Source of the DNA: Cenarchaeum sp.
Lineage (GTDB): Archaea; Thermoproteota; Nitrososphaeria; Nitrososphaerales; Nitrosopumilaceae
Direction: 5' to 3'
Assembly (NCBI GenBank): GCA_963693095.2
Contig: OY843768.1
Coordinates: forward strand, 544,001 to 608,000
Length of the DNA: 64,000 nt
Shown here: piece by piece, positions 1-64,000 of the stretch
Numbering within the stretch: the stretch's first letter is position 1
Layout of the letters: every line of letters starts with the position of its first letter
Made by a program: the position numbers and the translations under genes
The notes under the pieces: model-generated
The model's input: the letters and a program-made list of their open reading frames with translations, nothing else
Told to the model about the DNA's origin: nothing
Databases searched by the model: none

Positions 1-2
1 AG

Positions 3-3000
3 ATCGACGTGCCCAACGGCGTCACTGACAGGGCAGTGCCGCCAAACCCGATCACGCGTGACACAAAGGCCGGAGCCACGTACAACGCACTGCCACTCGG
101 GCCGTTCTCGGCATCCACGGAGAGCGTGACAGTCACGCACGTCATGCTGCGGACTGCGGCGAGCGGAACCCTTGACGTGCGCCACTGGACGATAACTGAT
201 GACGATGACGGCGATGCCTCGACGTCTGAGGCCCGCACGATATCGGGCATAGCACTTGGACTGGGCGATAACGCGCCGGTGGTCAGGAACGTCGATCTTG
301 CCACGACGCCCTTGGAGCTCGTCACGCTCGCTGGCCAGCAGACGCACGTGGTGGGAGATGTCACCGAGACGACGCTCGTCATCACGCACGCGGCCCTGGA
401 CTCGGCGGCATCGACGCCATCAGTGGCGTACACGCCGCCTGCGGATCCCGCAACCCCGTCCCTTGGTGGCGTGACCGCGCATGTGGCCGAGGCCGCCGAC
501 GGCATCGCGCCGTCGTTCACCGCGGTGACTGCGGGCCTGACCGAGACGAGCGTCACGTTCAGCGAGGCCGTGGCCCTCCCGACCTCTGGCCTGGCAGCCG
601 GCTGGGCAGTCGACGGCACCGCGGTGAGCCTGGCCGGCAGGCAGCCTGACGGGACCTTTACGCTCGTCCACGGGCCGCTGGCCTCCCCGGCGGCCACGCC
701 GACAGTCTCGTACACGGGAACGGCGAGCCCAGTCGCAGACCTTGCGGGCAACGCACTGGCCGCCGCGGGGACGACTGTGAGCGCAGTGGCCTCGGACAGG
801 ACGGGACCCTCGTTTGACGCGGCTGCACCGCCGCGATTCTCGGGCACCGACATTGTGATCACGTTTGATGAGGCGATAGTCGCGCTCGGCACGCCAACGC
901 CGCCAGTCGCGCTCACAAACGCGCTGACGGGCTCGACGGTCCAGGCGACTCCGGTCATCTCGGGCAGGGTTCTCACGCTCGATGCGGGCACGAGCCCCGA
1001 TGAGGGCACATGGGGAGTCCTCGTGCCACCGACAATAGTGGACGCCGTGGGCAACGCGCGCACCATGTCGGCCAGCACTGCGGGCGTGACGTACCCCGAG
1101 GACACGTCGGCCCCCACACTGGCGTCTGCCAGGCTCGCCACGCCAACGTCGATCATCGTGACGTTCAGCGAGGCCGTGACGTTGAGGACCGACCTGGCAG
1201 AGCCTGCCGCCTCGTCGTGGAGCCTTAGTGGCGGCGGGGATCTCACCGCGAGGAGCATTCGTGACGGCAAGGTCGAGATCGCAAGCGACTCGCTCCTCCC
1301 GTCGCTCACTGGAGTTCCGGCCGGCACGATGCTCACTATAAACAGCGCAGGATCGATATCAGACCTCGCGCTTCCGCCAAACGCGCCCCTCGCGCCGGCG
1401 TCGATCGCGCTGGTCGATGGTGCTGCGCCAATAGCCCTCACGGCGGCCTTTAGCGGGCCGACTGTGCTTGACGTGACGCTCAGCGAGCCGGTGAGGACTG
1501 CTGGCACGTGGAGCATCACCGCGCCAGAGGGCAACCTTGTGGTCACCTCGGCCGTGGAGGGCTCGACGCCTAGCGTCGTGCGCCTTACGGTGTCAGGCGT
1601 GACTGACGGCGCGACATACACCGTTGGGGTTCCCACCGAGCTCGCCGACAGGGCCTCGCCGCCCAACACGTACATTCGGGCCTCGTCGGTAACAGTGACA
1701 TATACGGACACGCCGGCACAGTTCACGGCGGCGACGTCTAGCGTGCGCACGACAGTCGTCACGTTTGAGTCGGCCCTCGGAGGCGCGATCAACGTCAATG
1801 GGTGGGCAGTCACCGATGATGACGACTCGGATCCGGCGACAGGGGAGAACCGCATGATATCGAGCATCGCGCTGGGAACTGCAGGCAACGCGCCGAGGGC
1901 AACGCAGTCTGGCGCGCACACGATAGGCGGCACGTCGACTGTGACGACCCTTGTCATCACGCACGCGCCGCTCTCCAAGACTGACTCGACTCCACAGATC
2001 TCCTATGACGGATCCACGGGAGCGCTCACGGCCGGCGGGACGGCAGTCGCGCGCAGTGCCGCCGAGGCGACTGACGGGGCGCGGCCAGTCATCGACGTGG
2101 TTCACATAACGGGCCTGACCTCGATGGTCGTGCAGTTTAGCGAGCCCATGGTGGGCTCGACGAGAGCTGGCTCGTGGATTGTCGGCGACGAGGAGGATCC
2201 GAGCGGTGATAGTCTTAAGGATGTCAGGGAATTCTTGCTGCCTGATAGCGACCCCGTGCTGAGGCTCTCTATACCACCGTCATCCCCGTTGAGTGAGATT
2301 GCCCTTGTAACCAAGCAGCTCTCCTCCACGCAGATCGGCTACTATGAGGGCAAGCGTGACGTAGACTATGGCGCCACCCTAGAGTACACGGGCACTGCGC
2401 TGACTGACGTGGCCGGCAATGCGCTGCGGGTGGGCGCAGAGGAGCTAAAGGTGCCACGTGAGCGCATGCTCGACAGGGCTGCGCCTGAGGCAAACACCGT
2501 CAATCTTGACGTGAGCAGGGCGCGCCTTGCGGACGCAGACCCGACAGTGGGTTATGGCACACTGCTGGTAAAGGCCGGAGACACTGTGCTGGTGCGGCCG
2601 GAGATACTGTCATACACGCCAAATGGCCCAGATGCTCCGAATTGCCGTCTACCAGAGCCACAGTGCGCTGATCAGCCATACGCCATGGAGTCTGCGACGG
2701 TCAAATACTTTGCTACTGACACATCACGTCCACTCTCTTATGATGCTGATAACGACAACTGGACACACACGCTGACTGTGACCACGGACGTGCCGGAGGG
2801 CCGGCTAGTGCCAGTGTTTACGACGATTGACACTCCGGTGGGCAACGAGGTAACGTTCACGCAAGGCACCGACTGCACCAGGGACCTAAACGCGCGAGCT
2901 GCAGCGTGCGTCGAGGGGCACCCCGATGATGAAATTACGGAGAGCCGCTTTGCCGCACTGTGGCCAATAGTGGACCACGACCCCCCAACAGTCGTCTCGG

Positions 3001-6000
3001 CCACAATGACGTCGACGACTACGACAGTGGTGACATTCAGCGAGATAGTGAGGTTTAACGGCGGGACCGCCGCCGAGCGCGCAGGCCACTGGGCCATAAA
3101 GAATGCCGGTGCGCAGGCGGCGACAGGCTCTGTCTCCATATCGGGCAAAGTGATGACAATGTCGCACGCGCCGCTCCCGACTGGCGCAACGCCGACACTA
3201 GAGTACGCCCTGGGCACCTCTGCGGCCGGACGCGTGGTTGACAGGATCGCCCGCGAGCTTGCGGCAATCACGCCGCAGAGCCCCGTCATGGTCGCCGACA
3301 GCGTGCCGCCGACGCTCGTGTCCGTGCTTCAGCAGTTGCCGACGCGAACGATACACGCCACGTTCAGCGAGGCACTTGACGCCTCCACTGTCTCTGGCAC
3401 GACAGTCTACCTAGAGGCCGGTGACACGACGTCTACTGGCAGGACGACGCCCGTGGCCGGCGTCACCGTGGCCCCAGTCACCGGCTCGCCAGAGACAGTC
3501 GCACTCACGCTTCCGCTCGCCGCAGCTGACGCACAGTACACGCTCAGGGCCACTACGGATATTGGTGATGCCTCACCGGCATCCAACAGCCCCGCGGCTG
3601 ACCTCGTGGACACCGTGACAGTCGACACGATGGTTCCGCTCGCGACGGCGATCTCGTACACTGTCCTCGAGGCCGACTCGCAGGGGGCGCTCTCGGCGCG
3701 CGCAGCGCCGTACTCCAACCATGCGCGCGCCGGTGACACGATACGCCTCACAGTCACGCTCAACCAGGATGCTGTAGAGCCGCCGACGATCCTCCTCGAC
3801 GGCAAGACCGACGATCCTGGCACCACGGCCGATGACGCCAACACCGTGACAATGACGCGCGCAACAGCCGGAGACGAGACGCGCTGGACCGTCGACTATG
3901 TCGTGCTAGCCGGAGCCGGCGAGCCTGCCGACGGCCCGTTTGAGTTTATGATGAGCGTGTCAGACGGGGCAATGCCCACGCCAAACATGACAGTCGTGAC
4001 GGGCTCTGCGGGCCATGTGCCCTCATACGCCGCACCGTCACGGCCCATAATTGACAGGGCAGCGCCGACCCTCGTGTCCGCAAAGTCGACTACGACGTCT
4101 GATGTCGTGCTCACGTTCAACGAGGCGCTCACCGGAACGGTGAGCAGGGCCGACTTGAGCCTCTCTGGGGCAACGTCAGGCAACCCGGCAAAGATCATCA
4201 CGTCGTCAGGGGCAGAGGCTGACTCGTACACGCTCTCCGGGCTCCCGCTGTCATTCACGCTGCGCCACGACGAGCTTGGGCACACGGGAGGCGGGGTTCG
4301 TGTCGCCTATACGGCGTCGGCCACGCGCCTGTTTGACGTTGCGGGCAATGAGCTGGCGACGTTTAGCGCAACGCCTGCAGCCGACGAGGTGAGGCCGACT
4401 GTGCGCAACGCATCATTTGAGATCGGCGGCGGCGCAATACTCGCCACGTTCAGCGAGGCGATGGGGACACCGGCGGCCGGCTGGGTCGCGATAGACGCCG
4501 CACTCGGCACGCTCGGTGACATTACGCTTGATGATACGCGCACGAGGCTTCGCGCCGAGGTCGGCACGGCGGCGATGGCCAACACGAGATACGTCATCGC
4601 GATCACGACGTCTGCTGCAGATGACGCCGCTGTCCCCAACACCCTGGCAACAAGGGCGGTCTACTTTTTGGACGGCCCGCCTGTCAGCCTGGGCGTCACG
4701 TCGATGGACGTCAGGGTCCTGCGCGAGGCCTCGCCAAATGACGGCGTGGAGAACCTCGTGGCGCGCACGGGCGCGCACGCGCAGCACGCGATGGCCGGTG
4801 ACACAATAGAGATCAGCGTCGTGCTCGACACTGCGGCGCAGGCCGGAGACGACCATGCCCCGAGGGCATCGTTCCTTGGAGGCGTTGCCGTCGGCATGGA
4901 GGAGGTCACGTCAGGCAGCCCCGCGCCTGCGGCGCGCACGGCATGGACCGCCCGGCACACGGTAGCTGCGGCTGATGCCGAGGGGCCGGCGGCCTTTGAG
5001 GTGTCAGCGGTGCGCACTAGGTCCGTGACAAACCCGATTAGCGGCGATGCCGAGGATGTCATGACGACGGGCATTGCCACGCAGGAGGCCATCACGGGCG
5101 CGGCGGGCAACGCCATCATTGACACGACGGCTCCGGCCGTCGCCGGCGCGCGCTTTGCCGGCACGTCGGCGATACTCGTCGAGTTTGGCGAGCCGATCAC
5201 AGCAGCGCCGGCGACGGTTCGCGTGAGCTCGCCGGACGGCGATGACGCAGGCGATGACGCAGACGTCGCCGACGCGGCAGTCACGCACGTGCCGCCCTCG
5301 CGCTCCATCTCGCTGGCAGTCACGCAGGCCTCTGATGGCGACACCTACTCGGCCATGCTGCCGGCCACAATCCTCGACAGGGCCGGCAACGCGCTAGTCG
5401 CCGTCTCGCGCGACGTGACGTTTAGTGACGGCCCCTATGTGACTGGAGCGAGGACGCTGGACGCGACTAGGACGCTCGTCACGTTTAGCGAGGCAGTTGG
5501 CGGCACGGCCGTGCGCCTCGAGTGGACGCTCACTGAGGGCTCGACTAGGGTTGCGGTGGACGGCATCGCCGCCGGCGAGGCCGCATCGGTGGCGACTGCG
5601 ACGACGACGCAGATCACCGGCTCCCCGACGAGCATCACGCTACTTCATGACGCGCTCTCCTCGACGGCCGCAACGCCGACTGTAGAGTTTGTGCGCTCTG
5701 GCGGCGCCTCGATGACAGACGCCGCCGGCGCTGACCCGCTGCTCGGGACGTCTGCCCCGCTGCCCGTGGCAGTGGATGGCGCACCGCCGGCGATCCTGTC
5801 CGCCACGTTTGCCGACGTCAGCACGCTTGACATCTCGTTTAGCGAGCCCATAGACCGCACGCTCACGACGCCGTCGGAATGGACCGCTGACAACGGCCTC
5901 ACAGTTGACAGCGTAATGGACGGCATGGACTCGGCACGAGTTCGCCTTGAGGTCTCCCCTCCGGCAGCCTCGCTTGTGCCATACACGATCGGCCTGCCAG

Positions 6001-9000
6001 ACGAGCTGCGAGACCTGGCCATTGCGCCAAACTCTGTCGTTGAGGGCACCACTGCGACTGTGACGTACTCGGGCACCGCGCCGTTTGGGGCCACAACATC
6101 GGACACGACGACGACGCTAGTGACGTTTGCCTCGGCGCCGTCAGGCACCATAGACGTCGATGACTGGAAGGTCATCGATGATGACGGGACTGACAGGGTG
6201 ATATCCCGCATCGCGCTAGGAACCGCTGATGGCGCGCCGGCCGCAACCGGCGGGGACAGCGCGCAGGCCCACACGATCGCGCAGGGCTCAACAGCACTAG
6301 TGCTTGCCGTGTCGCACGAGTCCATACTGCCGTCCTCGACGCCCATAGTCGTGTATGTCGCGCCGGGCTCGGGAGGGCTGTCCGTGGGCACCACGCCGGT
6401 TGCCTCCGGGGGAGTCGAGGCGACTGACGGGATTGTGCCGGTGGCCGGCGCGACGTTTGGGATTCCGCCCACGATCAGGGTCGCCTTTAGCGAGATCCTC
6501 TCGGGGACGCCCTTGGAGATCGAGGGGTACGCGTACACCGTCACTGTTCCCGACGGCGCCACGGGCATCGTCGATGGCGACAGCCTGCCTGACGCCGTGG
6601 CCCTAAAGCAGGGCGCAGGAGCCGTCTCGTATGATGCTGACACGATGGTTCTCACCATAACGCTTGCGAGCACCGCGACAGTTGGCGTGGACTATACGGT
6701 GCGCCTGCCTGACGTCACGGGCCTGCGCGACATGGCCGGCAACGCGCTGGCCTCGCGCGAGCTCGAAGTCGCATACGTGATCACGCGCGCAATAGTGGGC
6801 GGGGCAATAGACAACGTCACGTACGACGGCACCGCCGCCGCGTCGCTGACGGTCCAGAGCCTCTCGGGCTCGGGCCTCACGCCCGCCGAGTTCGCCGCGC
6901 TCACCACCGCCGCGCGCGAGCGCCTCGCCTCAGGCGAGTCGCAGATATCTCGGGCCACGTTCGGCCTGCCCTTTGGCCTCGAGCGGCCCGCGGCCTCGTC
7001 AGTCGACGTCACCGAGTGGTCCGTCATCGAGGGCGCCGAGGGCGACGTGGACTCGTCGTGCGCCAGGGTCGCCGGCGCCGGCACCGAGCGCGACGTCCTC
7101 TCCGTCGTCGCCGTGCGCGACGACACGATCATCTTTGAGCACGGGGCGCTCTCGCAGACCTCCTCGCGCGCGCACGCAATCTACTCCCCCGACGCGGCCC
7201 CGTCGGTGCGCGCGCTGGCCAGCTGCGCGTACATGGCCGACGCCAACTCGCTCGTGCGCCTTGAGGTCCGGACCGCCTCGGCGACGCCGCTGGGCTACCC
7301 CGTCGACCGCCTCGTCGCCGAGTTCAGCGAGCCCGTGCTGGCGCCCGACGGGTTCAACCTGGGGCTGGGGATCAGGCACGCGCCGATCGCCGGGGTGCTT
7401 GGCATTCTCGACGTCGACAGGATGACGAATCTGTCGACGACCGTGCCGGTGGCCACCGTGCTCATCACGCCGGCCGAGTATGCGTTCAGGCTGGCGCCGC
7501 ACCCGCCGACGGGGACTGCGGCCACGTGGGACACGTACCAGTACGAGCTGTTCTCCCAGACGTCGTTCCGCGCCCCCACCAGGGCCGACGGGACGTCGGT
7601 GCTGGCCGGCCCGACCGCCCCCCAAGGCGGCGTGCTCGACGGCCTGCCGCCGGCCCCCGTCGGGGCGCACGCGGTGTCGGGCAGCACGGCCACAGTCACG
7701 TTCAGCGAGGCGCCCGCCGCGTCGTCCTTTGACGGCGCCGGCGATGACGACGCCGCCGTCACCGTGCTCGACTCGGCGAGGAACGCGCGCGAGGTCACCG
7801 GCACGTCCCTCTCCGGCAGCGTGCTGACGATAACGACGTCGACGCCGCCGCAGGCGACTGACACCATAGAGGTCGTCGGCGTGGCCGACGGGGCCGGCAA
7901 CGTGGCCTCCAGGCCGGAGATACTGGCGACCACAAGGGCAAGCGCGACGGTGACGGTAGTCACGCTCAGCGAGCGCGTCTCGGGCAGCACGGCGGCGCTC
8001 CAGTGGCTGGTGGGCACCGGCGCCGACCGCGCCCGCGCGACGGGAGTGGCCGCCGGCGAGGCCGCGTCAGTCACGGCCGACGCGGCGCAGGACGGCGGCA
8101 CGGCAGTGCCGGTAACGTTTGAGGACACGCTGACCCTGCTCCACGCCGCGCACGCCGGCCCCGGCGCGCCAGAAGTCGAGTACGTCAGGTTCGACGACGA
8201 GCGCCTGCGCTCCAGCGGCGTGGCCCTCGGCGAGCCGTTCCCGCCAGTGCCTGTGGTGACCGGCGCACAGACTGTGAGCCTGGAGACGACAGTCGTCACG
8301 CTCAACACCGAGGTCACCGGCTCGACGTCTGCGCGCCAGTGGACCATCACGGACAGCGCATCTGGCGCGACGTCCGCGCGCGCGCTGGGGGTGGCCCCCG
8401 GTGACGTCACCGACGGCGCGACTGCGCCCACTGCTGACACCGCACTGGACGGCTCGACGCCAGTGTCCGTATCGTCCTCCACAATCACGCTCCTCCACGC
8501 GCCGCTCTCCTCGGCGGCCTCGACTCCGGTCGTGTCGTATGCGCATACCGGCACCGAGCGCCTCTCGACCCTTGGAGGAACGCTGGCCGCCACGGCATCC
8601 CCGCACGTGACGGCAACAGACGGGATCGCGCCTGCATCACTGGCGTCATTTGAGGGCTACAGGACGATTCGCGTGGCGTTTGGGGAGGCACTCTCGGCGA
8701 CACCCTCGGAGATCGCGGGGTACGCGTACACCGTCACGGTTCCAGACGGCGCCACGGGTATAGTCGATGGGGATGACCTGCCCGATGAGGTGGCCGTTCT
8801 GGCCGCCTCGACGTCGTATGACGCCGCGACGTTCACGCTCTCCCTGGTGCTCGCAGGCTTTGCGACTGACGGCGTCACGTACACGGTGGGCCTGCCCGAC
8901 GAGGCGGGGCTCAACGACATGGGAGGCAACGCGCCGGCAACTGGCGGCCTGGGGGCCGAGTACGACGCGCCGCCGCCAGACACAGTCGCGCCGACGATCG

Positions 9001-53400: not shown

Positions 53401-56400
53401 AGCGCCGGCGACGTTCACGGTCACTGCGCCGGCGACGGGCGGGACGATCGCCACGCCGACTGTGATGTCTGCGCAGACTACGAGCCGCGAGACGACAACA
53501 GTCACGTTCAGCGGCACGCTCGCCCTCGGCGAGACGAGCGCCTCGGACTGGGCGCTAACGCCTGGCTCAATCACCGTCACATCGTTGCGGGCCGGCATGC
53601 AGACCGAGGCCGCCTCGACGCCGTCGGCTACGCTGGACATGGGAGACGTGTCGATCACGCCGACCAACATGATAACGCTGGTCCACACCACCATAGGCAC
53701 AGGCGCCACGCCGACCGTGCAGTATGACGGGACGGGAACGATAACGGCCTCTGGCGCGCCGGGCGTCGTGCCGACCACGGCCTCCCCGCACACCACGGCG
53801 ACTGACGGGGTCGCGCCGCTCGTGATGACTGCGACATACGCTGAGACAAACCGCGAGATAACGCTCACGTTCAGCGAGGGCCTGGACTCCGACACGGTCA
53901 TCGCGGCCAACTTTGCGGTGCGCGGGTTCACCGAGCCCACGACGCGCTCGGACACGCTGGCGTTCAACACGGCGCACGGCACGGACGGAGTCCTCTACAC
54001 GGCTGGCTCCTCGGACTCTGAGACCTCGATGGTCTCGATCAGGCTCGCCACCTCTGACTCGTATGACGACTACAAGGTCGTCATAGCGGGCTCGGTTATG
54101 GACACAAACACCAACGCGTACGTGCCCATAGACAACCCTGACGGCAGCGACGCTACTGACGACAGCGACGTCGACGTCGAAAAGGTCGACGAGACTGCCC
54201 CGCGGGCCACGGAGATAACAGCCACAGTCCACGACGGCACGCCGGGCGCGAGCACGGCAAAGACCGGCGATCACAGGACCTTTGCCGGCATCGGCGACAC
54301 GGTTCGCCTGGACATCACGCTCGACGAGGACGCCTCTGGCACGCCGACCATAGACGTGGCCGGCGTGACTGGCGCCTCGATGGACGACATGGCAGACGGC
54401 GACGCGACGACGTGGCGCTATGACCTCGTCGTGTCGGCCACGACGGTCGAGACGTCATCGCTGACCTTTACGATAAACGTCACCGACGGCGATAACTCTG
54501 GCACGATAACGGAGACGACCGGACACGTGGGCACGCTGATGTTCAACCGGCCGACCATAGACGTGACGGTGCCGACGGCGACGGTGACGACTAGCGTGAG
54601 GCTCGAGGACGCCCCGTCAGACTCGTCGACAGTCACCACGGCCGGCATCGACGACGAGCTTCGCGTGACGCTCACGGCCAGCGAGGCGCTCGACGCACGG
54701 GTCACTGACATTGATCTCTTTGCGGCTGCAGTGGACGCCGACTCCGTCGAGGGCGCCGGCGCCAACGCGTACGCGTACGTGCGCACGATAGTGGCGGATG
54801 ACGCCAACGGCGATATCGAGTTCTCCGTCACGTTCCGCGACAGGGCCGGCAACGCGGCAGCGGCCGCATTGACGCACACCGACGCGACGCCGCGCGTGAC
54901 AGTCGACGCCACGCCGCCGACCATAACGTCTGCCGCGACTGCATCCACCACGACGCTCACAGTCACGCTATCCGAGGCAGTCACGGGCGCCGGCACGTGG
55001 TCTGCAGTGGATGGCTCGACGACTGCAATGATCTCCTCGGCGGGCGTCTCGGGCGACACGGTGACGCTCACGTACACGGCGATCGCAGACACGTCATTTG
55101 CGCCGAGAGTCACGTACTCGGGCACGGGCATAGTCGACGCCGGTCGCAACGCCCTGGTGTCCGGCAGCCAGCAAGGCGCCACTGACGGGGTCTCGCCGAC
55201 GGCTGAGGCGGCCTTCTCGGGCAACTCCATCGTCATAACGTTCAGCGAGCCTGTCACCGGCGTGACGTCCATGGACGTCACGGCGCCGATGGCGTCCACG
55301 TCCGTGTCCACGACCGCACACCACACCGCCGGCGAGGCGACTGTGAGGATAGACCCACCCACGCCGGTGGCAATCGGCACGTGGACAGTCGCCATACCGG
55401 CAACAGTCACCGACGTGGCGACCAACGCGCGCGCCACGACTAGCGTCACGGCCGAGCGCGCAGAAGCCCCCACGGCGACAGTCGCCTACGAGGTGCAGGA
55501 ACAGGCCACAATGACGGCAAAGGCCTCTCCGCACACAAACCACGCGCGCGCAGACGACACGATCGTCCTCTCGCTCACGCTATCCGAGTCCGTCGACACG
55601 GCGCCGACTGTCCTCTTTGTGGGCAAGACGACAAACCCGGTCACGATGACCAGGGCCGGCACGACGAACGTGTGGAGTGCGCCGTATGTCGTAGAGTCGA
55701 CCGGATCCATAGACGGCACGTTCACGTTTGCCGCGACGCTCACGGGCAACACGGGCTCGACGCGCCCCGTGAGCGCCGACCCGGCCACGGCACCGACAAT
55801 AGACCGCGTGGAGCCGACGGTCTCCACGACGGTGTTTATGGGCAACTCGATCGTCATAACGTTCAGCGAGCCTGTCTACAATGTGCCGATGACGCTTGAT
55901 GTCACGGCTCCGGGGGAGACCATGGACGAAGACACGACTGCACACCACACCGACGGCGAGGCGACTGTGAGGATAGACCTGACTGAGCCGGTAGATGTCG
56001 GCTCGTGGACAGTCGACATACCGGCAGCCGTCATCGATGTGGCAAACAATGCGCGCGCCGCAGCATCGGCGAGCGTAATGGCCATGCGCACCGACGCACC
56101 CACGGCGACGGTGGCCTATGCGGTCTTTGAGTCTGACGGCACGACGCACCGCACCGCACCGCACGCGGACCACGCGCGCGTCGGCGACAAGATCAGGCTC
56201 TCGCTCACGCTCTCTGAGGCCGTCACCACTGCGCCGACGGTCGTCTTTGTGGGCAAGGTCGACGATCCGTCCACGCCGCTAGTCGATGAGTCGGGCAGTG
56301 CCAACATGGTGAACGTGGCGGGAACGAACGAGTGGCGCGCGACGTACACCGTGGAGACAGACATGCAGGACACGGCAGAGCTCGGCAGCCCGTTCACGTT

Positions 56401-59400
56401 CATCGCGACGATCACGGGCAACACGGGCTCGACGGGCACGGCGACAGAGGCCCTGGCGACGCCGCCGACAATAGACCGCGTGGTGCCGAGGATAACCTCT
56501 GCAGAGTTCACCGAGGCTGACACGATTGTCATCACGCTCTCTGAGGCCCTCGCCGGTACGGCCTCGACCATAGAGAGCTACACGTACGGCCTGACTGCCC
56601 CTGATAACACGAACACGCCGGACGACTCGGACGCCAATCCGGACGTCATCGTGCTGGCCACGGCAGCCCCCTCGGCCACGCCGCCAGTAAAGCCAGTCAC
56701 GTACAACGCCGGCTCGCGCACGATCACCCTCACGCTGGCAGCCGACGCGACTGCCGATGTGGCCTACACAGTAGAGCTGCCGACGGAGCTGGTCGACGTG
56801 GCAGAAAACGCGTTCACCGATAGGACAGAGGACGCGACGTACGACCCGCCAGAGGCCTCATCGCTCACGTTCACCGTGATGACCGGCTCGCCGCTGACCG
56901 AAAAGACTGGCGCAAACGCCAACCTGGCCGGAATAGGCAACACGATACGCATAACCCTCGGCCTCGACGCTGCCGTGACTGCGGTGCCGCAGATAACGCT
57001 GGACGGCAGGGACACGGCGTCAGTGGCCATGACCGCAGGCGCTGCCATGACGTGGAGCCACGACTATGTCGTGGACGCAACGCATGACAGCGCCACGGCC
57101 TCAGACCCGCTGGACATCTCCATGCTCGTCACGGGCAACAACGGCAACGTCGTGAGGATAACGGCCACGGACGGCCTGGCCTCGGGCACGTCAGTCACGC
57201 TGCCCCTGATCGACGCGGAGAGGCCGACGGCCACGGCGCTCACCGCCGCCGTGGTGCTCGCAGGGCAGTCCGCCGACGCGGCAGCCGGCACGGTGGCGGC
57301 CATCGGCGACAATGTCCTCGTGCGCCTCACGGCCGACGAGGAGCTCACCACGGCCGCTACCGACATTGCCTTCTTTGGCCGCACCGGCGTGAACGCCAAC
57401 TCGGTCACGCCGGGTGCGTCCAACCTGTACACGTACGCGCGCACGATACTCGACACGGACGACAACGGCCCACTCGCGTTCAGCCTTACCATGAGCGACA
57501 TTGCGGGCAACACGGCGACGGCGGCGCTCACGCAGGGCGACCTGACGGGCACGAACGTGACAGTCGACTCTGACGCGCCAACAGTCACCGCCATGTCGCA
57601 CAGCGACACGGCGCGCACGATAACGCTCACGTTCAGCGAGGGCCTTCTCGCGACCACGGCAGTGGCGGCCAACTTTGAGGTGCGCGGGTTCACCGAGTCA
57701 ACCCAGGTGCGCTCCCCCTCCGCACTGGCGCTCAACGCGGCACACGGCACGGCCGGAGTCGACTACACGGCCGGCACCCTGGCCTCTGACGCCTCGACGG
57801 TCACGATCGGCCTGAACGCAGACGACTCGTACGACGCGTACAAGGTCATCATCGCGACAGCAGTCACGGACACGGCGACCAACGCGTACGTGCCCATATC
57901 CAACCCCGACGGAGACGCGGCGACTGACGACAGCGACATCACGGTGCAAAAGACCGACATGACTGCCCCGCGGGCCACGGAGATATCCGTCACAGTCCAC
58001 GACGGCGCCGCCACGGTTGCGGCAAAGACGGGTGACGCTGCAGGCTTTGCCGGCATCGGCGACACGGTTCGCCTGGACATCACGCTCAACGAGGACGCCT
58101 CTGGCACGCCGACCATAGACGTGGCCGGCGAGACTGGCGAGATGATGAACGACAGGGGAGACGTCGACGCAAAGACATGGCGCTATGACCTTACCGTGTC
58201 GGCCACGACAACTGAGACGTCATCGCTGGACTTTACGATAACGGTCACCGACGGCACAACACAGGGCATGATAACTGCCACGACCGGCCACGTGGGCACG
58301 CTGACATTCGACCGGCCGGCCATAGACAGGACGGCGCCGACGGCCTCGTCTCTCACCACGACGGTGAGGCTCGAGGGCGCGGCAGCAGACTCGTCCACTG
58401 TCACGCTGGCAGGCATCGATGACGACGTTCGCATCAACGTCACGGCCAGCGAGCCGCTAGTCACGGCCGTCGGCGACATTGCGCTCTTTGGGACGTTGAC
58501 TGCCGCTGACTCGGTGGATCCAGGCGCGTCCAACGCGTACTCGTACGTGCGCACGATAGTCGACTCGGACGCCAACGGCCCGCTCGCGTTCAGCCTGACG
58601 ATGCGCGACAGGGCCGGCAACACGGCGACGCTCACGCAGGCCGACGTGGACGGCACGAACGTCACCGTCGATGCCGACGCGCCGACCATCATGTCTGCGG
58701 TGACGGCATCGACTACGACGCTCACAGTCACGCTCTCTGAGGCAGTTACGGGGACGTCCATGGGCGGACACTGGTCGGCAATCGACACGGATCCCGCCGT
58801 GACGGCCGCAATCTCCGCGGCAGACGTCTCGGGCAGCACGGTGACGCTCACGTACACGGCGATCGAGGACACGTCATTCAGCCCAGAGGTCACGTACACG
58901 GCGCCGTCCTCTGGAGCGCCGGCTGACGCGGCGCGCAACGCGCTGGGCGGCAGCCCCGTCACCGCCGCTGACGGCCTGAGCCCAACGGCCACGGCGGCCT
59001 TCTCGGGCAACTCTATCGTCATAACGTTCAGCGAGCCTGTCACCGGCGTGACGTCAATGGGCGTCACGGCGCCAAGTGCGTCCACGCCAACATCCATGAC
59101 CGCAGACTATGACGACGGCACGAGGACCGCGACGATAGACCTCACCGCGCCGATAGCAACAGGCACGTGGACAGTCAACATACCGATGACAGTCATTGAC
59201 GCGTCCAACAATGTGCGCGCCACTGCCAGCGTCACTGCCGATCGCGCGGCGGCTCCCACGGCGACAGTCGCCTACGAGGTGCAGGACCAGAGCACGGGAA
59301 CGGCGCGCGCCGCGCCGTACACAAACCACGCGCGCGAAGGTGACGTGATCAGGCTCTCGCTCACGCTCAGCGAGGCAGTCGACATGGCACCGACTGTCCT

Positions 59401-62400
59401 CTTTGTTGGCAAGACTGACAGTCCGGACACGACAGCAGATGACGCCAACACGGTAACCATGATGCAGGTCGGCAGCACGATGGAGTGGTACGCAGACTAT
59501 ATGGTCGAGACGGTGGCTGCCGCACCGGCCATAGACGGCCAGTTCACGTTCATCGCGACGCTCACGGGCAACATGGGCGCTATGGGTCCTGTGACGCAGG
59601 CCTCGACGTCGCCGCCGACAATAGACCGCGTGGCGCCGACGCTCAGCGCGGCGCAGACTGACGGCCTGCGCGAGGTCTCTGTGACGTTTAGCGAGAGCGT
59701 GTGGGGAACCACAAGTGCCTCCGAGTGGACAGTCGGCGGCACTGCTGCGGAGAGCATCACCACTGACGGCTCGGCGCAGACCGGCGACCTGAACCTCGTG
59801 CGGAGGGCAACTCTGGCCATCGGCCTCTCGCAGGCCGGCGAGCTCGCCGGCGGCGAGGCGAGGCCGGCAGTAGCCCTCATGGCACGCGCGTCCGGTGGCC
59901 TCGTAGATATCGCCGGCAACCCCGTGGATGGCACACCGGTCACGGCCATAGACCGCATACGCCCGAGCCTCGTCTCCATGGAGTTCACGGCGCCCCGCAT
60001 GATCACAGTCACGCTGAGCGAGCCCATTGATGCTGACACGCTAGGCAGGAGCATCCCGCAGGGCAGCCTGAGCCCGCGCCTCGGGGCAATCACGGTCAAC
60101 TATGCGGCCGGCGCCGAGTCGCTCACGCTGATGACAGTCAATGGCGCAGTGGAGGGCACAAGCCACTCGCTCACGCTGCCCTCGCGCGTGACTGACGCGG
60201 CCAACCCTGCCGGCGTGGCGCGCAACAACATCCTGCCGACCTCCGTCTCAGACAGCCTGCCTAGCACGGTGGAGCCGACATACACGGCGCGCACGTACAA
60301 CGCCTCGCACGTCATCGTGACGTTCAGCGCGCCCGTTCAGGGCACGACGGCGGCGTCAGAGTGGACATTTGAAGTGCCGCCATCTGACCTGGTGACACCA
60401 GATGGCACAGGGCGGGCGGTAAACGCGGTGGCTGACAAGATTGATCCGGACATGACCGAGAGGCTTGATGACACGATACTGGCGTCATCTGCGTTCACCG
60501 GCCCATTCTATGTCGGCCACAAGGATCCAAGTGACGGCACATTCCCCGTCTGGGGACCGGGCGCCACGCCGGTCGTGAGGTTCACGATGCCGTCCAACGG
60601 CCTCGCCAGCGTTGTTCCGGAAGGTGACACGCCCATCACGCTAAAGACGGGTGCCGTGACTGCCGCTGACGCCATCGCGCCCACGGCAGCCTCGGCAGTC
60701 TTTGACACGCCGACTGAGGTCCACGTCACGTTCAGCGAGGACGTCCGCATCCAGAACCGCGACGGCCTGACAGTCTCCGGACTTGCCGTCACCGGCGCCA
60801 TGCTCGGCATGTCAGACAACATAGTGGTCCTCACCGTCAGTCCGCCGGCCGTCGAGGGCACGGCGCACACAGTCGGCATCGCGCGCGCAAGCGTGCAGGA
60901 TGGCGGCGGCAACACGCTTGCGGCAGACAGGACATTTAAGAACGTCATGTTCCAGGACGTTCTGGCGTTCACGGCATCCACGTTCAGGGCCGCCTCTGGC
61001 GAGCACGTCAGGGTCGTCCTCGATGACGACACGGTGGGAACGACGGTGGCCGGCGAGTGGTTCATCGGCGTTGCCGCCGACGGGACCGGCGGTGCGTCGG
61101 CGGCCTCGCTCTCGGCAGTCTGCACGGCCGGCGCAGGCCCCGCGGTCCAGGCGTCGATCAACATGGCCGACATTTGCCCCGGTGCTGCCGAGTTTGAGCC
61201 CAACACGATATACCTCGCATACGTCGCGCCGGACTCGGGCGCGACGCCCCGCGTGGCGTACAGGGCGCCGGCCGGAGACGGCGCGACGCCCATAGTCTCG
61301 ACGGTCAACATGCTCGGCATATCCGATCGCGCAGTGCTCGCCACAGACGGCCTGGCCCCGCTCTTTACGGCGGCGGCGACGACGAGCTCGAAAACCCTCA
61401 CGGTGACGTTTGACGAGGACGTCACGGCAGCGGCCGGAGGGCCTGACGCCTCGCGCTGGTACCACTATGACTCGGCCGTCGACCCGCCCACGCGCGCCGA
61501 GCTCAACATGGCAGTCTCGGCGATGACAATGTTCGACTCGGCAACGCTGGACGACCGCACGCTCACGCTCACGCTGCCAGAGGATTACGCGCCCTCAAGC
61601 GGCTGGGGACCCGGCGACACGGCCGCCGTCCCGCAGACGATAGGCTATGTCGTGCCGGCCGGGGAGACGGCGGACATACTCGATGCCTCACCGGCGGCCA
61701 ACGGCCTGGCAGACGGCACGGCGATCCGTGGCGTCACTGACGACGCGCCGCCAGAGATCGCCATGCTCACAGTCGTGGTCCTCGATGACAGCTCGCCAAG
61801 GGTGCCAAAGACCGACGGCTATGCGCACATCGCCGGCGCCGGTGATGCGATACGCGTCACGCTAGAGCTCTCCGAGCCGTCCTCGACCACCTCGCTGCCG
61901 AGAATCTCGGCGCTAAACGTGCAGGCCACGATGGCGCTGAGCAACGGCGACATGACGGCCACATCAGCAGACATCGCCGTGCCCGGCTCGTGGCCGAGCG
62001 ACGGGCCACTAGAGTTCACCATCACCGTCAATGACGCCGTGAACCCACCCAACGAGGCGTCGTTCACGCAGGAGGACCATGACAACCAGGAAGACGTTCA
62101 GCCGGTCCTCGTGGACGTCAACATGCCGAGCATCGAGGCCGTCCTGAGAACGTCGACTGACATGGTCCAGCTAGTCTTCTCCGAGGATGTCACCGGCACG
62201 GACAGCGTTTCGGTGAGCGCTGACGCAACGCCAGACGCGGCCACTGACCCGACAGCGCCCGTACTCATCAGGCCGTCGCCGGCGGGCAGCGACGCGACTG
62301 CGGCACTCGCACTCGTGCAGGGCACGTACATATTCACGATAGGGACCGGCGTCACCGACCTTGCCGGCAACGCGTTTGTGCCCCAAGAGGTCACGATCGG

Positions 62401-64000
62401 CGAGGGCGGGGAGATCGAGTCAGACACGCTCGTCGTGCCGGCCAGCGGCGCGCTGCCTGTCACGATCAGCGCGCCTGATGAGCGAGGACGGCCCATGGCG
62501 CCTGTCACGCTCCTCGTCGACGATCTCGTGGCAGACGACAGCACGTTTGATGGGGATATCACGATTCGCCTCGGGCGCTCCGAAGTCACTATATTCAGCG
62601 GGACCATGATCAACGACCTCGGCCCGACAGACGACGACGCGCCCACGCAGGGCACGCTCATCGCCGAGCTTGCGCGCCGCCTCGCCGACCTGACATACCA
62701 CGGCGCACTTGATGCTGACGACGAGGCCGCGCAGACGGCCAACGAGCGCGCCGCGCGGGCCATCACCTCCAGTGAGCCGGCAGTCCTCGTCACGCTAGGC
62801 AAGAGGTCTGATGCCGAGTCGGTCCTGTTCTCGAAACCAGTCCTGATCAGGCTTGATGGCGTCTCCGAGTCAGACCACATATTCTACATGGAGGCCGACC
62901 AGGATGTCGTGGACCGCATGCTCGTGACGGCGATACCGACGTGCCGTGATGCCGGATACGAGGACTTTGACCCCGAGACGGGACCGACACTGGGCAGCGC
63001 AATGACAGAGGATGATGCGCGCGAGTGCCACGTGCGCGACGGCGGGGACATTCTCATCTGGACGAACCACTTTACGCAGTTTGGCGGCAGCTTGCAGGGC
63101 ATACGCGTGGGCGGCGGCGGCGACGGGTGCGATGACTGCACGCCGCCAACGCTAGGAATAGACAGCACCGGAGTCCGCAGGGTCGCCGGCGGGTTCTCGT
63201 ACAATGCCGACACAATAGACGCCGAGTACTATTACACGCCGCTCCCGCTAATCACGGTAGAGACTGGCGAGGAGAACACGGCTGTCATCAAGGTCTTTGA
63301 GGACACCGGGCCGCAGAACGTGCGCCACGTCGGCCTGGGCTTTGGCCTCTCGCGCGGGCAGCACTTTGCCGAGTCGCAGGCCGAGATTAGGGTGCACCTG
63401 CCGTTTAGCGGCGCGCCGACCATCTCGCTTGACGATCCGGCCGGCGCCATCGACGTCGACTCGCTGCGTGCCATGACGGCAACGGGTGACTGCATGGCCG
63501 GATCGACTGCCGAGTGCCTCATCGTCACGATATACCACACGTTCCATGAGCCACTCGACTTTAACGTAGTCTCGACGATGGTCTGGGATGACAGGCGCAA
63601 CTCGTGGCAGAACTTTTTCAACCACGGCATCCACATCACCGGCGAGTCGCTAAACCCGCGCCACGGCATCGCAGTCAACGGCGGCGGGCTTGTCCTCTAC
63701 CCGCTCATCTCGGGCCACGTCGATGATGACGGTGACGGGATATACGATTATGACGCGCGCCACGTGACGTACATGCTAGACGAAGACCACCGCGTGTACC
63801 GCCTCACGCCTAACGGGACGTACCAGCTTGCGCGCAACCTCGCCTCGCTCCACCACGAGATTGACGACTCGATGTATGACGAGTCGCGCCTGACCTCGCA
63901 TGGGGCCGCGCGCGGAACGGTATTCTTTGATGAAATAATCGATAGGGAGCGCCGCATAGCCGCCGAGTACCTCAGGTCCATGGGAATGTCAATTGACATT
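20252..64000 (+). CDS. Giant repetitive surface protein, 3' part (about 14,580 aa, 3'-partial, absent from the ORF track)
   Basis: The frame with codon starts at position mod 3 = 2 opens after TGA 20207-20209. It reads the same module families wherever I translated it (e.g. 25322, 46202, 62402) and is still open at 63962-64000 (AEYLRSMGMSIDI). The track lists no + ORF in this frame after 19696, as expected if no stop occurs before the window end. The first ATG is at 20486, mid-module and without a signal peptide. Confidence 0.92.
22286..22950 (+). repeat. Block duplicated at ~37793-38460 (ASSIAFEVYDGTPDAGTLKTGDS.LLASDGDTIRLILTL…)
   Basis: The DNA is near-identical from gcaagctcgatagcctt onward. 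The offset is 15,507 nt, which keeps the frame. Confidence 0.9.
23005..24020 (+). repeat. ~1 kb three-module block duplicated at ~33655-34665 (…LADPDGDGPL.EITPASVVY.RP…)
   Basis: Shared tracts include acggcgccggccgagtggaccgtcgccggctcgacagtca and ccgacggccagggcggcctttttgggcagcgcgatcgtcatcctgttcag. Confidence 0.88.
30242..32640 (+). repeat. Local tandem duplication (period ~1.34 kb); further copies at ~13200-13910, ~33295-33655 and ~48190-48905
   Basis: 30707-31032 and 32042-32367 are 326 bp long with about 6 mismatches by eye, at an offset of 1335 nt. The PDPYASHAR.. module starts at ~30242 and ~31598. Confidence 0.9.
46202..46780 (+). other. Internal ZU5/GAIN-like putative autoproteolytic domain (…EC…EDCYVEDGADVVIWTSHMTQFG)
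   Basis: This is a non-repeat domain inside the 3' frame, with Cys codons at 46661 and 46715 and H-M-T at 46757-46765. It is clearly paralogous to the domain at 62400-63090. The fold assignment is inferred from the motif. Confidence 0.6.
53850..55625 (+). repeat. ~1.8 kb block duplicated at ~57612-59415; more diverged copy at ~20215-21600 spanning the frameshift
   Basis: Shared tracts include ctttgccggcatcggcgacacggttcgcctggacatcacgctc and cccacggcgacagtcgcctacgaggtgcagga, and the module order is collinear. Confidence 0.86.
62402..63085 (+). other. Distal ZU5/GAIN-like putative autoproteolytic domain (…LFSKPVLIRL…TC…RECHVRDGGDILIWTNHFTQFG)
   Basis: It has a ZU5-like F-x-K-P-V motif at 62828-62842, Cys codons at 62942 and 63026, and H-F-T at 63068-63076 followed by QFG. 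The fold assignment is inferred from the motifs. Confidence 0.65.
63110..64000 (+). other. C-terminal non-repeat domain (GGGG-DGCDDCTPPTLG…GGFSYN…YYTPLPLITVETG…VWDDRRNSWQNFFNHG…GESLNP), thaumarchaeal type
   Basis: Direct translation shows an aromatic-rich globular sequence with CxxC (63128/63137), a second Cys pair (63491/63515) and DDDGDGIYDY (63722-63751). The resemblance to C-termini of Nitrosopumilaceae secreted proteins is from memory and has not been searched. Confidence 0.6.

Follow-up and report, generated by a model that had tools for sequence, protein, structure and literature searches.

Does the 64-kb segment examined here carry a single archaeal gene from one end to the other, or does the frame change that divides it mark the end of one gene and the beginning of another? 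The segment (hereafter the window) comprises 64,000 nucleotides of the Cenarchaeum sp. genome assembly GCA_963693095.2 and corresponds to positions 544001-608000 of contig OY843768.1 (designated C1 below). A sequence-only reading of this DNA, made without database searches, had recognised one gene for a protein of at least 21,333 amino acids, composed of modules and interrupted by a single frame change. We find that the window is the interior and the 3' end of one intact 92.1-kb gene. Its corrected open reading frame (ORF) has 30,699 codons, corresponding to 4.6% of the 2.0-Mb genome; 21,333 of these codons are in the window, and the full gene is half again as long as this part. The positions of the features discussed below are collected in Table 1.

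The giant gene spans positions 516070-608168 of the forward strand of C1 (window -27,930 to 64,168). As deposited, frame +3 of the window is open from 3 to 20453 with an open 5' end, and frame +2 is open from 20210 to 64000 with an open 3' end. In the genome, frame +3 is open from position 515953 onward, and frame +2 reaches its stop codon at 608168, 168 nt past the window. Extension in both directions, a check that the sequence-only reading had proposed, yielded 28 kb more of the gene on the 5' side, with a signal-peptide-like N-terminus, and a stop codon on the 3' side. The codon counts given in that reading for the two segments of the read-through frame (6750 for 3-20252 and 14,582 for 20255-64000) are exact, neither segment contains a stop codon, and the in-frame stops that it had asked to be looked for within 20210-64000 were not found. 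Its statement that the 64 kb hold no start, stop or intergenic DNA applies to the read-through sequence; it does not apply to the sequence as assembled, where frame +3 terminates at a stop codon at 20451-20453 and the first ATG of frame +2 follows at 20486. About 2.3% of random codons are stops at a GC content of 67%, and 14,582 open codons would by this arithmetic arise by chance with a probability of about e^-335; the longest ORF on the opposite strand of the window has 892 amino acids. GC content in the window is 65-70%, and codon-position GC is alike in both parts (GC3 0.79-0.83 versus GC1 0.62 and GC2 0.58). Neither tRNA genes nor Rfam families were found in the 64 kb.

What happens at the junction is seen when the window is aligned with a paralog located on the reverse strand of C1 (1275305-1275897; 80% identity over 601 nt). 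Relative to this paralog, the window is one base short at 20254/20255, with the letters GAG-CCGAGC standing against GATCCCGAC. In frame +3, module sequence extends as far as ...TLTFGEGL and gives way to an Arg/Pro-rich, out-of-frame text that runs into the stop codon; in frame +2, module sequence is read from ...STATAANIAVYG on. Insertion of one C creates the codon AGC and renders the frame continuous. One immunoglobulin (Ig)-like module (residues 16028-16175) straddles the junction; a protein initiated at ATG 20486 would begin in the middle of a module and without a signal peptide. Seven public sequencing runs contain part of the window region 16000-25000, and contigs from four of these (X1, X2 and X3 from study P1, and X5 from study P2) were aligned to positions 18000-23000. 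The extra C at 20254 was present at the full depth in each of them (depth with C/total depth: X1, 587.1/587.1; X2, 414.8/414.8; X3, 23.8/23.8; X5, 5.3/5.3). A contig of 2,217 nt from run X3 (record 21) spans 19848-22063 and shows no difference to the window besides the added C. Since every contig that covers the site in four runs and two studies carries the extra base, we conclude that the deposited assembly, and not the organism, is the source of the frameshift at 20254 and that the gene is a single ORF. Hence, the view that one gene runs through the window is borne out by the extents of the frames, by the frame restored in the read contigs and by the module that crosses the junction.

The giant gene is a member of a family. 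Nine giant paralogs sharing a C-terminal region occupy 311 kb, or 15.5% of the genome, and each of the four further genomes of this genus included in the search has relatives of this region. In G004, a closed 1.64-Mb genome from a different species of Cenarchaeum, a frame of this family runs without interruption for 25,697 amino acids. We considered this gene as an ortholog of the giant gene and rejected it, since it pairs with the paralog at 1.25-1.32 Mb of C1, with which it has the N-terminus MAQLS(Q/H)SRL... in common; with the N-terminal 400 amino acids of the giant gene, no ortholog was found in G004 (best E 3.6e-5). The paralog at 1.25-1.32 Mb (C1:1247749-1324529, reverse strand) has a frame of 24,633 codons that is cut off from its C-terminal region near C1:1250835 by a one-nucleotide deletion (G versus GG) relative to the G004 ortholog, in a stretch of 91% identity. 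This break is probably another assembly error, and the paralog would then read through for about 25,600 amino acids. A second one-nucleotide deletion points to scattered single-base errors in the deposited assembly and is consistent with the error at 20254.

The DNA of the family is repetitive to a limited degree. With the paralog at 1.25-1.32 Mb, the longest similar blocks measure 7.1 kb (87% identity) and 2.0 kb (95.9%), a block of 1.8 kb matches an upstream part of the giant gene itself at 95.9%, and no repeat within the giant gene or to its paralogs exceeds 96%. Such a mosaic of blocks with 85-96% identity amid diverged modules (Table 1) is suggestive of gene conversion, both from one giant gene to another and inside single ones. 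The sequence-only reading had described near-identical DNA blocks on both sides of the junction; shared blocks do exist, but they are only 86-88% identical (for instance, 17229-18505 versus 49499-50781 with 87.4%, and 19386-20186 versus 34628-35428 with 87.5%).

Two other explanations would deny the existence of a protein of this size. If the frameshift were real, the locus would be a pseudogene or would consist of two ORFs of about 16,100 and 14,500 codons, of which only the first part would be secreted. The deposited sequence does contain the deletion, with the end of frame +3 and the downstream ATG noted above, and the broken second giant paralog could mean that the family is decaying. However, the read contigs of both studies agree on the extra C and differ in nothing else, the break falls inside a module and is followed by out-of-frame text, the downstream ORF has no signal peptide, and both breaks shorten short runs (CCC to CC and GG to G), which we take to be typical of consensus errors; we therefore regard a genuine frameshift as very improbable. 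Almost as improbable in our view is that the 92-kb ORF is a chimera of paralogs that the assembly joined through their repeats, so that no molecule encodes 30,699 amino acids. The nine paralogs with common modules and the 85-96% blocks of up to 7.1 kb would provide the substrate for such joining, and many alternative joints are seen here among the contigs of the runs, with no aligned piece above 2.2 kb. The sides of these joints, however, are 20-36 nt long and separated by other letters, a pattern that the alignment tool attributes to repeats or further copies. The repeats themselves have diverged (identity of at most 96% at the DNA level, and of 15-68% for most modules at the protein level), and long accurate reads should place them. 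Moreover, the frame is open over 92 kb with one putative signal peptide and one C-terminal region at the correct ends, and the closed genome of another species independently contains a frame of this family of comparable kind.

The size of the gene gains its weight from the identity of the host. The genome (2,003,945 bp in two contigs, 99.55% complete) encodes an archaeal small subunit (SSU) rRNA gene (1457.6 bits) and an archaeal amoA (E 3e-117), and the related loci in a collection of species representatives come from Cenarchaeum metagenome-assembled genomes and from Thaumarchaeota archaeon S13. The sequence-only reading had made its size claim dependent on the organism being an archaeon, and these marker genes and relatives answer that point: the host is a sponge-associated ammonia-oxidising archaeon of the Cenarchaeum type. 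The NCBI taxonomy places Cenarchaeum in the family Cenarchaeaceae under Nitrososphaerota; its placement in GTDB we take to be Nitrosopumilaceae.

The predicted product has 30,699 amino acids, a mass of 3.10 MDa and a pI of 4.2. It is rich in Ala, Thr, Val, Ser, Gly and Asp, contains 3382 acidic versus 1307 basic residues, 32 Cys and 0.6% Lys, and has 61 N-x-S/T sequons over its entire length; mucin-like or glycan-rich low-complexity regions were not seen in it. Most of the protein is an array of Ig-like modules. The Pfam family Big_5 (PF13205) scored above its gathering cut-off of 23.6 in seven of eight pieces (23.8-228.6 bits); the piece encoded by window positions 13503-20252 had no Pfam match at E<=0.01. 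Weak matches to CopC and SWM_repeat, both also Ig-like families, occur in the body of the protein. A jackhmmer profile started from one module recovered 184 modules; their median length is 118 and their median spacing 117 amino acids, and together they cover 69% of the protein. Of these modules, 103 are positioned before the junction, 80 after it and one across it. The stretches left uncovered number 53, most of them multiples of about 110 amino acids in length, and we take them to be more diverged modules. Accordingly, the estimate of about 190 modules of about 110 amino acids in the sequence-only reading is about right for the window, where 124 modules were matched directly and about 178 are estimated from the 117-residue spacing; for the whole protein, the spacing gives about 257.

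The 76 modules that we aligned are 15-68% identical to the first, with a mean column identity of 20%, and 40 of them match Big_5 as single modules (E<=0.01). No module arrays were detected at the DNA level by Tandem Repeats Finder (TRF). Judged from these comparisons, the modules are old, diverged copies. An AlphaFold2 (AF2) model of one module (Table 1) has a predicted local distance difference test (pLDDT) score of 88.5 and forms an all-beta sandwich of nine strands. In Foldseek, its best match is the S-layer protein SbsC (4uic; E 1.7e-4, query TM-score 0.62), and four matches reached E<=1e-3; the modelled fold is thus predicted to be nearest to the Ig domains of the S-layer proteins SbsC, SbsB and Sap. 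NCBIfam gave no match for the N-terminal 500 amino acids, for 1000 amino acids of modules or for the C-terminal region. An extended Ig domain measures about 4 nm. With this value, the sequence-only reading had inferred a filament approaching 0.8 um for about 190 modules; the whole extended protein would by the same figure be about 1 um long.

How might a protein of this kind reach the cell surface, and how is its gene read? The N-terminus is MGVGGGVLLVSALAVLALAALLPGALHGEAWA followed by QT; residues 1-28, which precede A-W-A and a putative cleavage point in front of Q, form the only Kyte-Doolittle window above 1.8 in all 30,699 residues and constitute a putative signal peptide. In front of the gene, a G14 tract is followed after 41 nt by the sequence TTATATA (516040-516046) and, after another 23 nt, by ATG 516070. 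A spacing of 23-24 nt between the TATA box and the ATG is likewise found in the paralogs, and its repetition fits a leaderless archaeal mRNA and a start at 516070. An in-frame ATG at 516031, considered as the start, is upstream of the TATA box and is disfavoured by this spacing.

Long poly-G tracts are a recurrent element of these promoters. Contig C1 contains 16 homopolymers of at least 10 nt and eight of at least 14 nt; for independently and identically distributed bases, about 0.13 G/C runs of at least 14 nt would be expected. Of these eight, six are poly-G (14-21 nt, coding strand) and precede the TATA box of a giant gene by 28-50 nt (Table 1). They precede the giant gene of the window, the 24.6k-, the 16.1k- and two 3.06k-codon paralogs, and a 5.3k-codon gene upstream of the giant gene. 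The closed genome G004 has tracts at the orthologous promoters, with conserved flanks and different lengths (21 versus 17, 18 versus 19, and 16/18 versus 19/17 nt); further orthologous sites have 13 versus 16 and 15 versus 15 nt. Three further G/C tracts are found away from recognised starts of giant genes, at C1:16806-16823 (G18), 1959854-1959868 (G15) and 1328123-1328135 (C13). The tract at 1959854 is conserved in G004 together with its flanks and is a G15 there too; the sequence downstream of the tract at 1328123 equals the promoter of the 24.6k-codon paralog, and this site may be a promoter remnant.

Poly-G/C tracts occur in phase-variable surface-protein loci, for example those of Neisseria and Campylobacter. 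The Cenarchaeum family resembles such bacterial contingency loci in that a set of related genes for predicted surface proteins carries long poly-G tracts in the 5' control regions; it differs from them in that the host is an archaeon, that the tract is upstream of the TATA box and not in the promoter spacer or the coding region, and that the lengths compared are those of different species. Formation of a G-quadruplex or a binding site for a regulator are alternative roles for the tracts. Passages of a published survey (PMC2831843) treat only short poly-A/T tracts inside coding genes.

The C-terminal 599 amino acids of the giant protein have counterparts with 49-76% identity, encoded at the 3' ends of eight further giant ORFs in the genome. 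An AF2 model of this region, based on an alignment of 20 sequences (A1), has a mean pLDDT of 66.8; residues 12-242 are well modelled, residues 270-400 moderately, and residues 400-599, with two long terminal helices, poorly. In exhaustive searches with VIA-align, residues 16-245 of the model gave GAIN domains of adhesion G-protein-coupled receptors (GPCRs) and ZU5 domains as the top matches. The GAIN domains were those of CD97 (Z 7.9, root-mean-square deviation 4.1, 141 residues aligned; and Z 7.6), BAI3 (7.0), CELSR1 (6.9) and Gpr126 (6.3), and the ZU5 domains were those of ankyrin (7.4, 7.3 and 6.8) and UNC5b (6.1). Residues 258-411 matched V-set Ig domains (Z 6-7). In the ESM Atlas, the 30 nearest clusters share no Pfam family, and the nearest named one is ZU5 at 0.85, which we treat as a lead only.

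The putative GAIN/ZU5-like sandwich contains a conserved motif, W-T-N-H-[F/L]-T-x-F-G. The tripeptide H-[F/L]-T is present in all 18 sequences of alignment A1 that cover the site (H-F-T in 17, H-L-T in one), while the remaining two of the 20 end short of it; W-T-x-H-F/L-T occurs in eight of the nine giant paralogs. A paralog of 11,156 codons (C1:50437-83907) possesses the C-terminal core module described below but lacks this motif. In the model, H-F-T falls in the turn that connects strand E227-235 to strand E237-241, the last two of the domain. This position is of interest in view of a recent preprint (Brogan & Rudner; bioRxiv 10.64898/2026.05.12.724683), passages of which describe GAIN-like domains, named MAIN, as widespread in bacteria and archaea. 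According to these passages, MAIN domains cleave themselves at HX(S/T) in a beta-turn (between F and S of HFS in B. subtilis YfkN), and they occur in secreted proteins between a large adhesion or enzymatic ectodomain and a cell-surface anchor; the preprint has a set of 15,000 proteins and reports a mean mass of 158 kDa. The Cenarchaeum protein would resemble this architecture in its putative signal peptide, its adhesion-type domains, a GAIN-like sandwich with HX(S/T) in a beta-turn and a C-terminal end domain; it is unlike it in that the fold match stays below Z 8, in that no sortase signal, SLH domain or other known anchor is present, and in a mass about 20 times the 158-kDa mean. The conservation of the motif in the last turn, taken together with the preprint, raised our belief in a GAIN-like joint, and we lean slightly towards the view that this joint is self-cleaving.

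Downstream of the motif, a conserved core module of the C-terminal region follows (Table 1), and after it a poorly modelled helical tail that reaches to the stop codon. The profile of this core finds 825 proteins at E<=1e-3 in a library of 1.84 billion proteins, many of them with 400-700 amino acids. Five of eight such proteins that we scanned bear clear, unrelated extracellular domains N-terminal to the core (SBBP propellers with DUF7948, Big_12, ANF_receptor with LVIVD, and Laminin_G_3 with fn3), and three have no such domain or a weak Big_5 match only. With the query used, 14 of 24 further genomes from the same family proved to have the core, as against none of 16 from other families of the order; it has no Pfam, NCBIfam or PDB sequence match. 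One C-terminal module attached to varied secreted passengers resembles an envelope-anchoring or sorting domain, and we therefore consider the core a candidate cell-envelope anchor on the basis of these sequence comparisons. Among proteins of 5,500-17,500 amino acids in a collection of 5.8 billion proteins, five possess the C-terminal domain, the longest with 7,439 amino acids, and a homolog search for longer proteins yielded only proteins of 1050-2995 amino acids that are named 'hypothetical protein'.

Table 1. Features of the giant gene and its surroundings. Positions are those of the window unless C1 is given.
Feature	Position	Strand	Remarks
Giant gene, internal and 3' part	1..64000	+	residues 9,312-30,644 of 30,699
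Frame +3 segment	3..20252	+	6750 codons of Ig-like modules
Blocks of high identity in a mosaic amid diverged modules	2060-4081, 6807-8632, 40418-47488		2.0 kb (95.9%) and 7.1 kb (87%) match the paralog at 1.26-1.30 Mb of C1; 1.8 kb (95.9%) matches an upstream part of the giant gene
Sole DNA tandem repeat of the window	9371-9435		15-nt unit x 4.3 copies, short in-frame repeat; TRF
Assembly error	20253..20255	+	one C absent after 20254 (CC for CCC); paralog gap, run contigs
Frame +2 segment	20255..64000	+	14,582 codons; 55 codons more, stop at 64166-64168
Example of an Ig-like module, Big_5 type	28295..28654	+	120 aa; Big_5 E 1.5e-9; modelled
Candidate GAIN/ZU5-like beta-sandwich	62402..63097	+	residues ~12-243 of the C-terminal region; AF2 pLDDT ~72-92
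H-F-T motif in W-T-N-H-F-T-Q-F-G (63059-63085)	63068..63076	+	predicted self-cleavage between F and T
Conserved C-terminal core	63128..63628	+	starts C-D-D-C-T-P-P-T-L-G; invariant columns C254-G420; helical tail to stop
Poly-G tract of the giant gene	C1:515985-515998		window -28,015 to -28,002
Other five promoter poly-G tracts	C1:337054-337067, 493170-493190, 766200-766215, 776010-776027, 1324331-1324348

Taken together, the explanation that we consider quite probable is that of one intact giant gene whose product is a surface fibre of Ig-like modules with the parts described above. The protein would be exported by the Sec system and held on the cell envelope by its conserved C-terminal module, from where it would project as a flexible, acidic fibre of about 1 um with which the cell may attach to the matrix of the sponge host or to neighbouring cells, or recognise them. 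Less certain are several additional steps. The GAIN/ZU5-like domain in front of the anchor may cut itself between F and T of the H-F-T motif, and the ectodomain might then stay non-covalently attached and be shed under tension, by analogy with what has been proposed for MAIN domains. Transcription may proceed from the TATA box 23 nt upstream of the ATG into a leaderless mRNA, and expression may be tuned or switched by the poly-G tract that precedes this box by 41 nt.

Several points weigh against this picture and should be kept in mind. The longest aligned contig has 2,217 nt and only positions 18000-23000 were covered, so the continuity of the 92-kb gene rests on the deposited assembly, which has at least one further one-nucleotide deletion and may contain other small errors. 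The best-matching runs may be the source sample of the genome and would then test the consensus rather than provide an independent test of the biology; they do test the assembly consensus, since the consensus is the very point at issue. Run X5, from the other study, has a depth of only 5.3. The putative signal peptide has no basic n-region, and neither a membrane anchor nor a known archaeal sorting signal was found in the giant protein. All VIA-align matches of the C-terminal region are below the confidence bar of Z 8 and hence borderline; Foldseek gave no match at E<=1e-3 with the 599-residue model, Pfam at E<=10 gave no family and no GPS, GAIN or ZU5 for eight GAIN-like sub-regions, and searches of PDB sequences with profiles A1 and A3 gave no matches apart from two chance-level rows for retinol-binding protein (E 0.42 and 0.85). 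The lack of a sequence link to GPS, GAIN or ZU5 is expected from the passages of the MAIN preprint (bioRxiv 10.64898/2026.05.12.724683). Finally, the adhesive role is read from the architecture of the protein, and no RNA run was among the public runs listed for window positions 16000-25000.

The same gene could also serve another role, namely in a protective or ion-gathering coat, either halomucin-like or as a canopy associated with the S-layer, which would shield the symbiont from phagocytosis by the host or concentrate cations near the ammonia-oxidising envelope. The similarity of the modelled modules to the Ig domains of SbsC, SbsB and Sap fits such a coat, as does the strongly acidic character of the protein; the share of the genome taken up by the family suggests a bulk structural role, and halomucin is a precedent for a giant protein secreted around cells (PMC4378361). 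The protein, however, shows no mucin-like or glycan-rich low-complexity regions, its sequons are sparse, and a force-release element of the GAIN type and poly-G promoters would fit variable adhesins better. We consider the coat rather unlikely, though a serious competitor, and prefer the adhesive fibre.

Giant Ig-repeat surface proteins are a known kind. The Cenarchaeum protein has in common with giant Ig-repeat adhesins and S-layer-type proteins a tandem Ig array and Big_5 matches above the cut-off, its putative signal peptide would be a further parallel, and it is unlike the known Big_5 and SbsA-SbsC proteins in its approximately 257 diverged modules, its 30,699 amino acids, its archaeal origin and a C-terminal region without a Pfam or NCBIfam family. 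Halomucin of Haloquadratum walsbyi, as described in PMC4378361 and PMC1544339, has 9159 amino acids, is secreted by means of a signal sequence and is thought to surround the cell. The giant protein would likewise be a secreted archaeal protein with a signal sequence; halomucin is mucin-like, whereas the giant protein is an array of Ig modules more than three times as long, and no sequence relation is expected. The sequence-only reading had placed its protein above halomucin, which proved correct and understated the size. Passages of the preprint by West-Roberts et al. (bioRxiv 10.1101/2023.11.21.568195) report that genes above 30 kb are missed or fragmented in short-read assemblies, that proteins above 10,000 amino acids are far rarer in Archaea than in Bacteria, with most of the archaeal ones in Asgard, that the giants of the Omnitrophota and other bacteria are multi-enzyme 'archaeovorins' of predatory bacteria, and that titin has about 40,000 amino acids; Cenarchaeum and Thaumarchaeota are not mentioned in these passages. 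The giant gene shares with the Omnitrophota genes a length above 30 kb and is unlike them in not encoding a multi-enzyme archaeovorin.

A survey of UniProt gave at most seven proteins of at least 5000 amino acids in any archaeal proteome. A term search in two comparative genomic studies of sponge Thaumarchaeota (PMC7848895, PMC6697440) returned no mention of giant or large proteins, and the literature on the largest archaeal proteins turned up only halomucin. No description of the giant genes was found in the literature, many subscription papers being outside the search. The giant protein is far larger than any archaeal protein that we found described; new are its size and lineage, the GAIN-like joint that the model suggests together with the undescribed candidate anchor module, and the poly-G promoters.

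Both flanks of the gene are of the defence type (C1:510072-515187 and C1:608204-616293). Their domains include HATPase_c_3 with DUF6577, an AAA_15 ATPase, a protein with zinc-ribbon, PEGA and Mrr_cat domains, and an EcoRV-like endonuclease with a D12 (Dam-type) adenine methylase. These neighbouring genes provide no functional link to the giant gene.

If the gene is expressed, archaeal proteins would reach an upper size of about 30,700 amino acids, a length within the range of that of titin, and the gene would show that a streamlined symbiont can afford such genes. The locus also illustrates that single-base consensus errors and the fragmentation of short-read assemblies hide genes of this kind. 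It offers an archaeal candidate for the newly described microbial autoproteolysis of the GAIN type, a candidate for an uncharacterised envelope-anchoring domain that is now open to testing, and a candidate for homopolymer-based promoter switching in Archaea, and it points to specific surface molecules through which the sponge host could be recognised. The most far-reaching version, in which micrometre-long 3-MDa fibres with a self-cleaving joint and a thaumarchaeal anchor are switched on and off gene by gene through their poly-G tracts for a life in the sponge, is one that we put forward tentatively and do not expect to hold in full. If true, it would constitute an archaeal counterpart of the phase-variable adhesin repertoires of bacteria, combined with a mechanical release in the style of eukaryotes, and the product of the giant gene would be the largest archaeal protein yet described.

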